From Thermoflexales bacterium (GTDB lineage: Bacteria; Chloroflexota; Anaerolineae; Fen-1058): a DNA stretch of 64,000 nucleotides. The position numbers and the translations under genes are program-made. Where the stretch lies: assembly GCA_034434835.1 (NCBI GenBank), contig DAOTXX010000152.1, positions 5,594-69,593 on the forward strand. Direction: 5' to 3'. This document shows, one piece after another, positions 12,470 through 59,776 of the stretch (the stretch's first letter is position 1; each line of letters opens with the position of its first letter). The notes beneath the pieces are model-generated. The model was not told the origin of the DNA and did not search any database. It was given only the letters and a program-made list of their open reading frames with translations.

Positions 12470-12694
12470 GGGTATTTCCCACATAGTGTGGTAGACCCCA
12501 CAATCTGTCACACCTGCCCTGGCGGGCGGTGCCAGGGTTGCGAGCCGCCGAACCCCCTGGTGGGGGCAGGTGCGGCGAAGCCATCTCATTTTCCCTACCC
12601 GGAGATTGCTTCGGAAGCCCGCCACGCTTTGCTCGTGGCTTAAGCTGCGCGCCCTCGCAATGACAGCGCGACTCACGTCAAGTGGGAAATGCTC
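12470..12694. mobile_element. MITE (TIR GGGTATTTCCC / GGGAAATGCTC) carrying an interrupted GTCATTGCGAG-type palindrome
   Basis: Flanks GAAGACAC / GAAAACAC (7/8 match); interior ends GAGATTGCTTCG...CTCGCAATGAC. Confidence 0.65.
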
Positions 12695-12720
12695 GAAAAC
12701 ACGCTCTCAACGAGGCACAC

Positions 12721-14370
12721 ATGGCAGAACGCTTACGCATCATCCCGCTCGGCGGCAATGGCGAAGTCGGCAAGAACATGCTGGCAGTCGAGTATGGCCC
12801 AGACATTCTCATCATTGACGCCGGCATCATGTTCCCTGAAAACGACATGCTGGGGATTGACTTTATCATCCCCGACTGGCAGTATCTCCGCGACGCGCAG
12901 CGGGCGGCGCACGTGCGCGGGATCATCATCACGCACGGCCACGAGGACCACACCGGCGCGCTGCCCTATCTGTTGCGCGAGATCAACGCGCCGGTCTATA
13001 CGACCCGTCTGACGCGCGGCCTGATCGAACTCAAGCTCAAAACCCACAAACTGCTCGATCAGACCACGCTCCACACGATCAAAGCGGGCGACACGGTTCA
13101 GATCGGCCCGTTCCAGTTGGAATTCTTTCGCGTCTGCCACAGTATCCCCGATGCCGTCGGCCTGGGCATCACCACACCAGCCGGGCTGATCGTCCACACG
13201 GGCGATTTCAAGTTCGACCACACCCCGGTAGACGGGAAGCCAACCGACTTTGCCAAGCTGGCCGAGTTGGGCGGTCGAGGCGTACTGGCGCTGCTGTCCG
13301 ATAGCACCAACGCCGAGCAGCCCGGCACGACGCCTTCAGAGCGCGTCGTCGAAGCTGCGTTCGATCAGGTTTTCCGCGACGCCAAGGGGCGCATCATCGT
13401 CGCGACGTTTGCTTCGCTCATCAGCCGCATCCAGCAGGTGGCCCACGTCGCCCAACGCTATCATCGCAAGCTGGTCATCACCGGTCACAGCATGAGCGAA
13501 AATGTTCGCATCGCGCAAAAGCTCGGCTACATTGACCTGCCTAATGATCTGCTGGTCAAGGTCGAGGAGGCCGGGCGATTGATGCCGAACGAGACGGTGC
13601 TGATGGTGACGGGCGCGCAGGGGGAGCCGAGCTCGGTGCTGGCGCGCATGTCTACCGGGCAGCACCGCCAGGTCGGCGTGCAGAAAGGCGATACCGTCAT
13701 CGTCTCGGCGCACGCCATCCCCGGTAACGAAGAGATGGTCCACCGCACGATCAACCGGCTGCTCAAGCGCGGCGCCGAGGTGCTTTACGATCCCATCGCG
13801 CCGGTGCACGTCTCCGGCCATGCCAGCCAGGAAGAGCACAAGCTGATGCTCAATCTGGTGCGCCCACAGTATTTCATCCCGATCCACGGCGAGCTGCGCC
13901 AGCTCAAGGCGCACGCCAGACTGGCCCAGCAGTTGGGCATTCCGCCGCAAAACACCTTTGTCGTCGAAAACGGCTATGTGATCGAGTTCGACGAAGGCGA
14001 GGGGCGTATCAGCGAGCGTGTGCCGGGCGGCTATGTCTATGTGGACGGCTCGACGGTGGGCGACATTTCACCGGATGTCTTGCGCGAGCGCGAAGTCCTC
14101 AGCCGCGATGGCTTTGTCGTTGCTATCGTCCAGCGGGATAGCGAGACGGGCCAGGTGCAGGGGCGCCCCGAGATCATCACGCGCGGATTCGTCGTCGAGC
14201 ACGAGGCCGAAGATCTGATCATCGGCGCGGAAGAAGCCGTGCTGGCGACGGTGCTCAGCAATGGGGTCAACGCGCAGGACCTGCGCGACAAAGTCAAAAG
14301 CGTGCTGACGGATTATCTCTATCGCGAGACCAAGCGCAGGCCGATGGTGATCCCGGTCGTTTTGGAGTGA
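12721..14370 (+). CDS. rnj: Ribonuclease J
   Basis: IIPLGGNGEVGKNM, THGHEDHTG, CHSIPD, HTGDFKFD, GAQGEP, HVSGHASQEE, IPIHGE, KRRPMVIPVV. Confidence 0.97.
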   Translation: MAERLRIIPLGGNGEVGKNMLAVEYGPDILIIDAGIMFPENDMLGIDFIIPDWQYLRDAQRAAHVRGIIITHGHEDHTGALPYLLREINAPVYTTRLTRGLIELKLKTHKLLDQTTLHTIKAGDTVQIGPFQLEFFRVCHSIPDAVGLGITTPAGLIVHTGDFKFDHTPVDGKPTDFAKLAELGGRGVLALLSDSTNAEQPGTTPSERVVEAAFDQVFRDAKGRIIVATFASLISRIQQVAHVAQRYHRKLVITGHSMSENVRIAQKLGYIDLPNDLLVKVEEAGRLMPNETVLMVTGAQGEPSSVLARMSTGQHRQVGVQKGDTVIVSAHAIPGNEEMVHRTINRLLKRGAEVLYDPIAPVHVSGHASQEEHKLMLNLVRPQYFIPIHGELRQLKAHARLAQQLGIPPQNTFVVENGYVIEFDEGEGRISERVPGGYVYVDGSTVGDISPDVLREREVLSRDGFVVAIVQRDSETGQVQGRPEIITRGFVVEHEAEDLIIGAEEAVLATVLSNGVNAQDLRDKVKSVLTDYLYRETKRRPMVIPVVLE

Positions 14371-14392
14371 TTGGGCCTCCGAGCACGGTCCA

Positions 14393-14935
14393 TCACGCGG
14401 CCGGGACGTATCCCAGCTCTTCCAGCCTGGCCAGCACCTTGGCCGCACTTTGCTGCGGCGTCTCACGTCCGTCGGTATGGCAGACGACCTCGGGGTTTGG
14501 CGGCGGCTCGTAGGGGTCCGAGACGCCCGTGAAATTTTTGATCTCGCCGTTGAGCGCCTTTTGGTATAGCCCCTTGACGTCGCGCTCGGCCAGCTTTTCA
14601 ATCGAACATTCGACGTATACTTCCACAAACCGCCCGATCTTGTTCCGAATCTCGTCGCGGATTTCGCGATAAGGCGAGATCGCCGCGCCGATAGCGACCA
14701 CACCGTTGCGGCTGAGCACTTCGCACACCCAGCCGATGCGGCGGATGTTGGTGTCGCGATCCTCTTTCGAAAAACCCAAGCCCTTGCTCAGGTGCGTCCG
14801 CACCACATCGCCGTCGAGCACTTCGACGCGCAGACCTCGTCGGCGCAATTCGTCAGCCACCAGTTGGCTGATGGTGGATTTCCCCGCGCCCGAAAGTCCG
14901 GTAAACCAAATCGTGAATCCGGTTTGGCAGCACAT
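14393..14935 (-). CDS. cysC: Adenylyl-sulfate kinase
   Basis: [13 protein letters not shown]-loop, [44 protein letters not shown]. Confidence 0.96.
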
Positions 14936-15026
14936 GGTTTGTTTGTGTTCTCTCCGAGTGTTTGAATGACACGTAAAACGTGATACGTGAAGCGTCAAGG
15001 TTCACTTGTCACGTTTCACGGAAGAA

Positions 15027-59096: not shown

Positions 59097-59113
59097 GAAT
59101 GGCCATGGCCTAA

Positions 59114-59220
59114 CCCGTCGCCGTAGCCGGCCACTCGACTCGCGTGTGGGAAATTCGCATCACCGACGAACAGGACAAGCTGGTCTGTGTTCCCAGGATC
59201 ACCCTGGCGGTCTTAGCAAG
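59114..59220 (+). pseudogene. 3' remnant of a hotdog-fold thioesterase gene
   Basis: Frame reads PVAVAGHSTRVWEIRITDEQDKLVCVPRITLAVL with no start or N-terminal half. Confidence 0.55.
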
Positions 59221-59229
59221 GAAGGACAA

Positions 59230-59691
59230 GTGTCAGAAGGGTTTGAATTTCACGATCCGGGCAAATTGATTGATGGCGAGCTGGAATTGGTCCTGGCGGA
59301 AAAACACCCCGCCGATCCCGCCAAGAATTGGGTTCCTGCTTATAAATTCAAAATGACCCTGGTCGGCCAAGATGACGAGATCGGCCGGATTGATTTACGG
59401 ATTGGCAACACGAACCATCTCGTCATGTACGGCGGCCACATCGGCTACCGGGTCGAGCCGGAATATCGGGGCCATCATTATGCCGCGCGAGCCGTCAAGC
59501 TGCTGATGCCGCTGGCCCGCCGTCACGGCATGACGACATTGTGGATCACGTGCAATCCAGACAACATCGCCTCGCGTCGAACCTGCGAGCTGGCCGGCGC
59601 TCGATTCGTCGAGATCGTGGATTTGCCAGAAGACAGCGACATGTACCAGGCAGGCGAACGACAAAAATGCCGTTACCGCCTGGATTTATGA
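59230..59691 (+). CDS. GNAT-family acetyltransferase
   Basis: IGRIDLR, GGHIGYRVEPEYRGHHYA, ITCNPDNIASRRTCE; GTG start after AAGGAAGGA. Confidence 0.9.
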   Translation: MSEGFEFHDPGKLIDGELELVLAEKHPADPAKNWVPAYKFKMTLVGQDDEIGRIDLRIGNTNHLVMYGGHIGYRVEPEYRGHHYAARAVKLLMPLARRHGMTTLWITCNPDNIASRRTCELAGARFVEIVDLPEDSDMYQAGERQKCRYRLDL

Positions 59692-59695
59692 TTTT

Positions 59696-59776
59696 GTCAT
59701 TGCGAGCCGCGTAGCGGCGAAGCAATCTCTCCTTTGTCACAGGAGATTGCTTCGGCCCTCTGGGCCTCGCAATGAC
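59696..59776. repeat. GTCATTGCGAG...CTCGCAATGAC palindromic element, unshelled copy
   Basis: Same family as the cores at 12507, 19962, 31474 and 51667. Confidence 0.85.

Follow-up and report, generated by a model that had tools for sequence, protein, structure and literature searches.

Within a 64,000-nt stretch of a Thermoflexales genome (assembly GCA_034434835.1, contig DAOTXX010000152.1, positions 5,594 to 69,593; hereafter the window), copies of one short palindromic repeat were found inside inverted-repeat (IR) shells. The best overall explanation, to which we assign a probability of roughly 0.7, is that two kinds of non-autonomous elements are physically nested here, the palindrome being carried inside miniature inverted-repeat transposable elements (MITEs) derived from insertion sequences (IS). 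The first kind would be a palindrome resembling repetitive extragenic palindromes (REPs), present in many phyla, mostly bare and without target duplication. The second would comprise classical MITEs from at least three DDE transposase families: IS481-like, the ISBst12 group of IS66, and the IS231 subgroup of IS4. Nearly the whole MITE body in this lineage would consist of the palindrome or of other small hairpins.

The palindrome, (T)GTCATTGCGAG…CTCGCAATGAC(A), was recovered as exactly five elements in looser searches and with all four conserved blocks. At one mismatch or fewer on both strands, GTCATTGCGAG gave 10 arm matches against 1.9 expected, a number reached in 0 of 100 shuffles. The five copies account for nine of these, and the remaining one is a chance hit, with 1 mismatch, within a gene. 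Four copies are complete (19961-20056, 31473-31558, 51666-51766 and 59695-59777; coordinates carry no strand here or below, except for two MITEs). In the fifth, copy 1 (12506-12665), the right arm is exact and intact, and the left arm is interrupted by a 27-nt hairpin (GTCA/27 nt/TTGCGAG); further hairpin inserts are present. The order of parts is a (C/T)GTC tag, ATTGCGAG, a variable hairpin, CGAAGCAAT, a CCA, CTC or CCC tail, a loop and the mirror image, over a length of 80-160 nt. The variable hairpins sit exactly between the conserved blocks. All window copies carry a TGTC tag and a CTC or CCC tail, and as single strands they form either one long hairpin or a four-way structure (-31 to -39 kcal/mol, z = -6.6 to -8.5). 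Divergent promoter regions harbour three of the five, and the other two are located between co-directional genes.

An earlier note on the window, made from the sequence alone, had described four of the five copies as enclosed in unrelated IR shells and one as bare, and the block searches agreed. In its details the elements were present, with the corrections that the third shell extends a few bases further and that the first copy is interrupted. The bare copy 5 (59695-59777) lies between acetyltransferase and response-regulator genes, with no shell and no duplication. Its flanks showed no IR above chance (score 6; control 95th percentile 8). It folds as a four-way structure (-31 kcal/mol, z = -8.5) and falls within a gap-free alignment to contig L001.

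The arms of the four shells have no sequence in common with one another. Matches between paired arms were 11/13 at 12470/12694, 15/16 at 19934/20072, 23/26 at 31443/31606 and 11/12 at 51653/51795, and interior other than the palindrome amounted to just 11-39 nt. To assess flanking duplications, the best direct repeat beside each element was compared with those of 5000 position pairs drawn at random. Composite S1 (12470-12694) has the shell GGGTATTTCCCAC / GTGGGAAATGCTC around copy 1 and is flanked by GAAGACAC (12462-12469) and GAAAACAC (12695-12702; P = 0.01). Composite S2 (19934-20072), with the shell GCGTTTGATGTGAAAT / ATTCCACATCAAACGC around copy 2 (19961-20056), lies 10 nt past a stop codon, in the gap between an FGGY kinase gene and a decarboxylase gene. 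It passed the duplication test (P = 0.01) and folds at -46 kcal/mol (z = -8.3); its boundary is ambiguous, being either a 16-bp IR or a 13-bp IR plus CGCACTT repeated 7/7. Composite S3 (31443-31606) has IS481-like ends, TGTGGTGTATCCTAACATCTTGAACA / TGTTCAAGATGTTAGGGTACAGGACA, around copy 3 (31473-31558), with CCAAT directly on both sides (31438-31442 and 31607-31611). The S3 flanks hold a repeated GTCGAATAGTC motif that blurs the duplication call, and the boundary is again ambiguous. Composite S4 (51653-51795) has ISBst12/IS66-type ends, GTAACTATTCAG / CTGAACAGTTAC, around copy 4 (51666-51766) and a perfect 8/8 duplication, ACCTTCAT (51645-51652 and 51796-51803; P = 0.003). Altogether, the eight IR-bounded elements with defined ends in the window, 91-225 bp in size, all had flanking repeats at P values of 0.0002-0.03; their IRs range from 14/14 in the MITE at 18043 to imperfect in the 91-bp family described below. 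The palindrome abuts one terminal inverted repeat (TIR) at 0-5 nt in 6/7 shells; this was rejected as evidence because short non-palindromic interiors make it expected by chance.

To further examine the shells, the 20-nt arm of S3 was used as a metagenome query, and four stretches were returned. In contig L143, the S3 right arm is identical over 27/27 bases to the left end of a complete IS of ~1.6 kb with TGT…ACA termini. HTH_28, rve and rve_3 domains were recognised in its single 517-aa open reading frame (ORF). Among NCBIfam models, transpos_IS481 scored highest, at 140.9 bits, below the cut-off of 224, with IS3 second, and by this sub-cut-off match the element is probably IS481-like. No palindrome was seen by eye within this IS. 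Contig L142 carries the same IS end, and L144 holds a MITE of ~140 bp with S3 ends, another interior without the palindrome and a duplication of ~15 bp; the fourth stretch was an unrelated AT-rich chance match. Autonomous IS partners, whose existence the earlier note had proposed to check, were thus recovered for S3 in other metagenome contigs, and none was found for S1, S2 or the MITE at 18043.

The S4 ends point to a second family. ISDge4 of Deinococcus geothermalis (ISBst12 group, IS66 family) ends in GTGACTACTCAGCA / GTAACTGCTCAGCA and makes an 8-bp direct repeat (PMC12898284). S4 shares its ends, GTAACTGTTCAGC / GTAACTATTCAGC, with a second window element, E1 (10867-11006; GTAACTGTTCAG / CTGAATAGTTAC), and these are 12/13 identical to the ISDge4 end. 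Together with the 8-bp duplications, this suggests a parent in the ISBst12 group of IS66 for both. E1 has a different, hairpin-rich interior, so the description of one GTAACTRTTCAG shell with the palindrome at 51653 and another cargo at 10867 was borne out; the duplication of 8 bp said to flank both is 8/8 at 51653 and 7/8 at 10867 (CCACACGG / CCACGCGG). Five further MITEs with the GTAACTRTTCAG TIR (140-144 bp) were found in IMG/VR, with duplications matching at 7 or 8 of 8 positions. A 93-bp member in contig L107 (4961-5053), from an Anaerolineae metagenome-assembled genome (MAG), has the ends GTAACTGCTCAGC and the duplication TTGAAACT (8/8). The 8-bp duplication of this family was therefore seen in eight independent copies. 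The sole empty shell observed was a 43-bp minimal ISBst12-type end pair, GTAACTATTCAGCG…CGCTGAATAGTTAC, with a 10-nt loop (L164, 11554-11596); it lies on an unrelated contig and has no clear duplication. The earlier note had proposed a search for such empty shells. As a separate observation, the final bases of E1 (11003-11006) supply the TAA stop codon of a TPR gene (11003-12244), and the same gene end was called in the related strain described below.

A third family is represented by two identical 91-bp MITEs in opposite orientations, M91a (23396-23486, plus strand) and M91b (43975-44065, minus strand), with IS231/IS4-type ends, (C)ATGCGTGTCAACTTAAGG … CCAATG, and a two-hairpin cargo. Members of the IS231 subgroup of IS4 carry the end signature CAT-------AA--TAA--- and make direct repeats of 10-12 bp (PMC2266710). 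The left end of M91, CATGCGTGTCAACTTAAGGT, matches 8/8 fixed positions of this signature and the right end 7/8. Duplications are 10-11 bp, namely GTCGCACGTCC / GTCGCATGTCC for M91a and CTCGTCAATCC (11/11; 43964-43974 and 44066-44076; P = 0.0002) for M91b. By end signature and duplication length, the parent is probably of the IS231 subgroup. The S3, S4 and M91 shell families each carry differing cargos.

These results show that the shells of these three families are genuine MITE or IS ends and not chance repeats, because S3 equals an IS481-like end, S4 matches the ISDge4 ends and M91 fits the IS231 signature. The earlier reading of shells as IS-end pairs therefore stands for these three families (27/27 for S3; ISDge4/ISBst12 ends and an 8-bp duplication for S4), and the outcome that would have undone it, namely single-copy shells that match no IS end and have chance duplications, is ruled out for them. 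It is highly improbable that the shells are chance or functional local IRs, such as terminators or operators, with coincidental duplications. S1 and S2 were found once each, S2 lies close behind a stop codon, and the repeated motif in the S3 flanks blurs its duplication, all of which would fit such an origin. Against it stand the 27/27 match of S3, the 8-bp duplications of S4-type ends in eight independent elements, the eight window elements that passed the duplication test, and an empty site for M91b (below), so that it is refuted for S3, S4 and M91. Inverted target duplications created by the insertion mechanism were also considered as a source of the shells and rejected, because arm distances vary, spacers are unrelated and two shells equal known IS ends.

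Movement was examined in strain B, a 58.8-kb contig from JGI metagenome 3300010938 that is ~98-99% identical and covers about 10.2-54 kb of the window. M91b is absent from strain B, which shows a clean empty site, …tgtctgcCTCGTCAATCCgatcagc…, versus CTCGTCAATCC + 91 bp + CTCGTCAATCC in the window. The M91 family has thus moved recently and is currently polymorphic, and a polymorphic insertion site, of the kind that the earlier note had proposed to look for, does occur. A second, diverged copy of the S4 composite is present at a different locus in contig L130, where 44/44 bases of the palindrome left half are identical, the subterminal shell sequence is common to both, and the ends have decayed. 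L130 also holds copies of three other window MITEs at 98-100% identity; its MAG is labelled Acidobacteria. Contig L107 has a one-sided S4 composite with the same junction. Shell and cargo are therefore copied as a single unit, given the M91b empty site and the second S4 composite at another locus.

Related composites were seen more widely, and the window MITE families are common to Thermoflexales and Anaerolineae MAGs. A further shell, X (CAGAAACTTG), encloses the palindrome in three Chloroflexota MAGs. In contig L140, an IS231-type shell holds a palindrome that is itself interrupted by a shell-X composite, giving three levels of nesting; nesting runs in both directions. Short-read (Logan) contigs identical to the window end inside these elements. 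Run SRR10095340 contains contigs at 100% identity to the window. The two-tier mobility scheme proposed in the earlier note is upheld in part, namely in that shells are IS ends and that shell plus cargo is copied as a unit; colonisation of pre-existing minimal shells by palindromes, and any link of this palindrome to HUH enzymes, are its hypothetical parts.

The absence of a transposase in the window, which the earlier note had also stated, was confirmed for 50 window ORFs scanned against Pfam and for the precomputed Pfam calls on L001 covering 55.3-63.7 kb, a few short ORFs being unscanned. Any mobility must therefore be in trans. Transposases encoded elsewhere in the genome would recognise the ends only and move whatever lies between them. 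The palindrome may have inserted into a MITE or IS copy that subsequently lost the rest of its interior, or it may have been captured at an internal IS deletion; either way it would gain a second route of spread.

Outside this genome, the full palindrome pattern was found in 73 IMG/VR stretches, many of them prophage or gene transfer agent (GTA)-like structural clusters. A sub-variant occurred in 66 stretches from genomes labelled as at least eight phyla; MAG labels were Propionibacteriaceae, Spirochaetaceae, Gemmatimonadota, Chloroflexota, Alphaproteobacteria, Gammaproteobacteria, Methylomirabilota, Omnitrophota and Acidobacteria. The genes that recurred beside the IMG/VR copies, as noted without a systematic search, were not transposases but structural genes of phages or GTAs, such as those for the portal, the tail tube and DUF2460; this was rejected as an association, since it reflects the content of IMG/VR. 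All recovered copies are inverted pairs, as the search pattern demanded both arms. Among 100 distinct copies and their flanks, no target duplication beyond chance was detected. The base before GTC was C in ~69% and T in 22% of the 200 flanks, the tail after GCAAT was CCA in 121, CTC in 36 and CCC in 13 of 190 arms, and ATTGC…GCAAT was invariant. Flanking IRs are rare elsewhere: 4/67 viral-set copies exceeded the control 95th percentile (8), and ~95% of copies outside the lineage had none above chance. The palindrome is therefore an independent, cross-phylum element that is mostly bare and makes no target duplication.

Its features suggest a REP-like element of the CGTC type. The (C/T)GTC tag, the AT-start stem and the CCA tail of CGTC REPs are all present; the stem of 8-9 bp with a 4-5-nt loop in each unit is not. 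One arm of the common form fails to fold when taken alone (-2.8 kcal/mol, z = +0.48), the strong pairing being between the two arms, and the window-type arm forms an interrupted stem of 5 bp + 5 bp. Because a single arm is not an 8-9-bp hairpin, we call the palindrome REP-like and not a proven member. The blocks ATTGCGAG and GAAGCAAT did not occur in the CGTC-REP paper (PMC3733652), whether text or supplements, or in the text of the RepRanger paper, and a literature search with the conserved blocks as text returned only unrelated primer sequences. Rfam, searched at the gathering threshold and at E <= 1, contained no palindrome family and gave only spurious plant microRNA matches to a simple repeat. 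The source of these matches is a simple-repeat palindrome at 27624-27760, (GATAGAGAT…)n facing (ATCTCTATC…)n, in which the strains differ by 13 and 18 bp.

The conservation of the palindrome might also reflect host function, as a protein-binding site or structured RNA under selection whose presence in MITEs is incidental or exapted, although we consider this improbable. Its 11-13-nt blocks are extremely conserved across phyla, the hairpins between them vary yet pair, and the strain substitutions fall in those variable hairpins. Against this, the palindrome has no fixed position relative to genes, lacks an Rfam family and reads symmetrically on the two strands; some MAGs have it in abundance and at the ends of contigs, much as a selfish repeat would be.

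Two further explanations concern how palindrome and shell came together. Under the first, a single-strand- or hairpin-specific enzyme (HUH/RAYT-like, RAYT being a REP-associated tyrosine transposase, or another) prefers stem-loop junctions, and the shells are targets, not vehicles. The lack of target duplication fits such an enzyme, as do the inserts at stem-loop junctions (the 27-nt hairpin in the arm of copy 1 and the variable hairpins between conserved blocks), the L140 composite at the inner edge of another palindrome's outer stem, and the MITEs themselves, all of which when folded form long hairpins (z = -3.4 to -8.4). Yet ~95% of copies outside the lineage lack a flanking IR above chance, the scanned window ORFs include no such enzyme, and CGTC REPs are reported without flanking transposase genes (PMC3733652). 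Composites are also copied as units, so shells acting as vehicles would be needed as well, and we regard structure-directed insertion as rather unlikely.

Equally doubtful is capture of the palindromes at the birth of the MITE, in which they would have been incorporated at an internal IS deletion as filler from template-switching gap repair or as a deletion end-point, with hairpins stalling replication. Members of one TIR family share ends only (S4, E1 and L107; S3 and L144; M91 and L140), in S3 subterminal bases derived from the IS remain on either side and meet the palindrome exactly at the junction, and the non-palindrome interiors are short (11-39 nt). This origin is pure inference, as no intermediate (an IS with the palindrome inside) was seen and the L143 IS lacks the palindrome by eye. 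Filler capture is documented mainly for eukaryotic elements, which also counts against it.

Several findings weigh against nesting of the palindrome in IS-derived MITEs. All four palindrome composites are fixed in the window and strain B: S1 with 2 substitutions, S2 within a gap-free alignment, S3 identical, and S4 with 3 substitutions, all within variable hairpins. E1 is present in strain B as well, with an 8-bp tandem indel, and the movement of the composites and E1 therefore predates the split of the two strains. A second copy of the S1 or S2 shell was not found in the sequences examined, and these two may not be MITEs; nor did the S3 composite recur there. Members of the same shell family do not share an interior, and neither a single deletion event nor simple insertion into a common MITE would explain this. 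Within this genome, of which the window part was examined, no full-length partner IS came to light: the IS481-like one was found in other metagenome contigs, and assignment to IS66 and IS4 is based on ends and duplication length only.

Nested elements nonetheless remain our preferred explanation. A bolder version, which we offer tentatively and think unlikely to hold as a whole, is that orphan (C/T)GTC palindromes spread mainly packaged in the ends of whichever DDE IS are active in the host ('shell swapping'), and that the hairpin may bring the ends together to make efficient minimal MITEs. REP-type palindromes are among the commonest bacterial repeats, and the CGTC class is without a known mobilising enzyme. 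A palindrome inside MITEs of several IS families offers a way, open to testing, for repeats without an enzyme to multiply and to pass from one genome to another. It would put into concrete form the published suggestion that a broad range of transposases may move CGTC elements. In practical terms, short-read assemblies break at predictable points in these nested repeats, one of which provides the stop codon of a gene.

The window contains other MITE-like elements, and the shelled hairpin elements that the earlier note had listed as REP doublets (18043, 23395/43974, 48225 and 54039) are all present. M18043 (18043-18219) has a perfect 14-bp TIR, GTACTTGTTTACCG, four small hairpins within and a duplication, GATTAGGC (8/8; 18035-18042 and 18220-18227; P = 0.002). 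A second locus, at the end of contig L130, carries a copy with 98% identity; no parent IS with the same ends was found. The element at 48226-48349 is a long imperfect palindrome with two central hairpins and ambiguous ends and duplication; an 82% related copy is present in metagenome contig L142. A 108-bp MITE-like element at 54039-54146, CTATAGATGTTCAGA … TCTGAAGGTCTATAG, holds two GC-rich hairpins (fold z = -8.4) and lacks a clear duplication. It matches L130 over 65/65 bases; one hairpin of the L130 copy contains a nested insert, which the window also has as a stand-alone GC-rich hairpin module (40968-41027; GGGCGACC…GGTCGCCC, with nested hairpins). The module is 98% identical to L130 5349-5408, there within the 54039-type MITE. 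Small hairpins with a constant C-TTCA-G or C-TGAA-G loop and differing stems were seen at 17986, 18124, 18155, 18471, 23425, 44028 and 48264, both within and outside MITEs.

Strain comparison revealed further differences. Between 84-nt direct repeats that are 76% alike (23773-23856 and 24626-24709), a stretch of ~780 bp (23846-24624) is replaced in strain B by other DNA encoding a DUF8426+HNH protein; a PIN/HicB pair adjoins, and the region (23773-24709) looks like a variable cassette site. In the SBP_bac_5 solute-binding gene (42138-43853), 1.1 kb (42594-43696) is absent in strain B, with a junction overlap of ~10 bp, and strain B therefore retains only a 163-aa remnant. Strain B also lacks 220 bp (49719-49938) in a small overlapping gene pair (49673-50231). 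A 9-nt-period repeat (32116-32340) within ORF 31662-32408, which has no Pfam match, differs by 6 bp in length between strains. Two paralogous nucleotidyltransferase genes stand in tandem (57328-58164 and 58266-59096), and the equivalent of one of them, ~1 kb (57078-58072), is missing from contig L001, which is 99% identical; either the strains differ by a duplication or deletion, or the assembly has collapsed.

Two other regions were recorded. In the region 6526-9405, an HNH endonuclease gene (7413-8036) is preceded by an 886-nt gene-free stretch with a 31-nt imperfect IR (6625-6794) and followed by an ORF (8056-9405, 449 aa) without a Pfam match. A AAACGTGAAACGT-type motif occurs four times (9677, 12241-12322, 14969 and 53990-54036), twice as inverted pairs, with a perfect 17-bp IR at 53994-54036. 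Two copies flank sulfate-activation genes, and the motif may be a regulator binding site.

The elements can be compared with several known systems. CGTC-tagged REPs, of which Neisseria dRS3 and Rickettsia RPE-4/6 are examples, are reported to lack associated transposase genes; they bear a CGTC (or TGTC or CCTC) tetranucleotide at one end, TGTC variants being common, their units have 8-9-bp stems, 4-5-nt loops and a 3-nt tail with the consensus CCA, and movement by a broad range of transposases was suggested (Di Nocera et al. 2013, PMC3733652). Similar to these, the palindrome has an outer (C/T)GTC tag, an AT-start stem and a CCA tail, can fold into a large stem-loop and occurs in several phyla; it was recovered as inverted dimers with a pattern that demanded both arms, and transposases were not among the genes recurring beside its IMG/VR copies. 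Unlike them, the common-form arm is not self-folding and the conserved blocks pair across arms; its phyla also include Chloroflexota, Actinomycetota, Gemmatimonadota and others outside the published list (PMC3733652).

Similar to REP doublets forming hairpins (REPINs) with their RAYT (Bertels and Rainey 2011, PMC3116915), the palindrome has two inverted halves that give a hairpin, is dispersed between genes and makes no target duplication. The GTAG tag of that system is absent, and the scanned window ORFs contained no transposase domain, no search for a RAYT gene having been made. As in ISDge4 (PMC12898284), the ends of S4, E1 and L107 are accompanied by 8-bp duplications; unlike ISDge4, the window elements are 140-143 bp and have no transposase, and an ISBst12-type transposase of this lineage was not recovered. 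The shells resemble mobile insertion cassettes (MIC231) and MITEs in having two IS ends, no transposase, a duplication of the parental length and a variable passenger between the same ends. In contrast to MIC231, the passengers are 80-160-nt palindromic repeats or hairpin pairs instead of genes, and shells derived from several unrelated IS families share one passenger.

The cyanobacterial small dispersed repeats of Elhai et al. 2008 reportedly include very small hairpin units (20-30 nt) inside other repeats. Like these and bacterial interspersed mosaic elements (BIMEs), the window elements are modular mosaics of palindromic units; unlike them, the outer layers are MITEs of named DDE families with TIRs and duplications, and one layer is a current insertion polymorphism. 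IS ends with foreign DNA (mobile insertion cassettes and MITEs), mosaic repeats (BIMEs) and REP-type palindromes are thus already known. Less familiar are a single REP-like palindrome that makes up the body of MITEs belonging to several unrelated DDE families, and individual shell families with alternative hairpin cargos.

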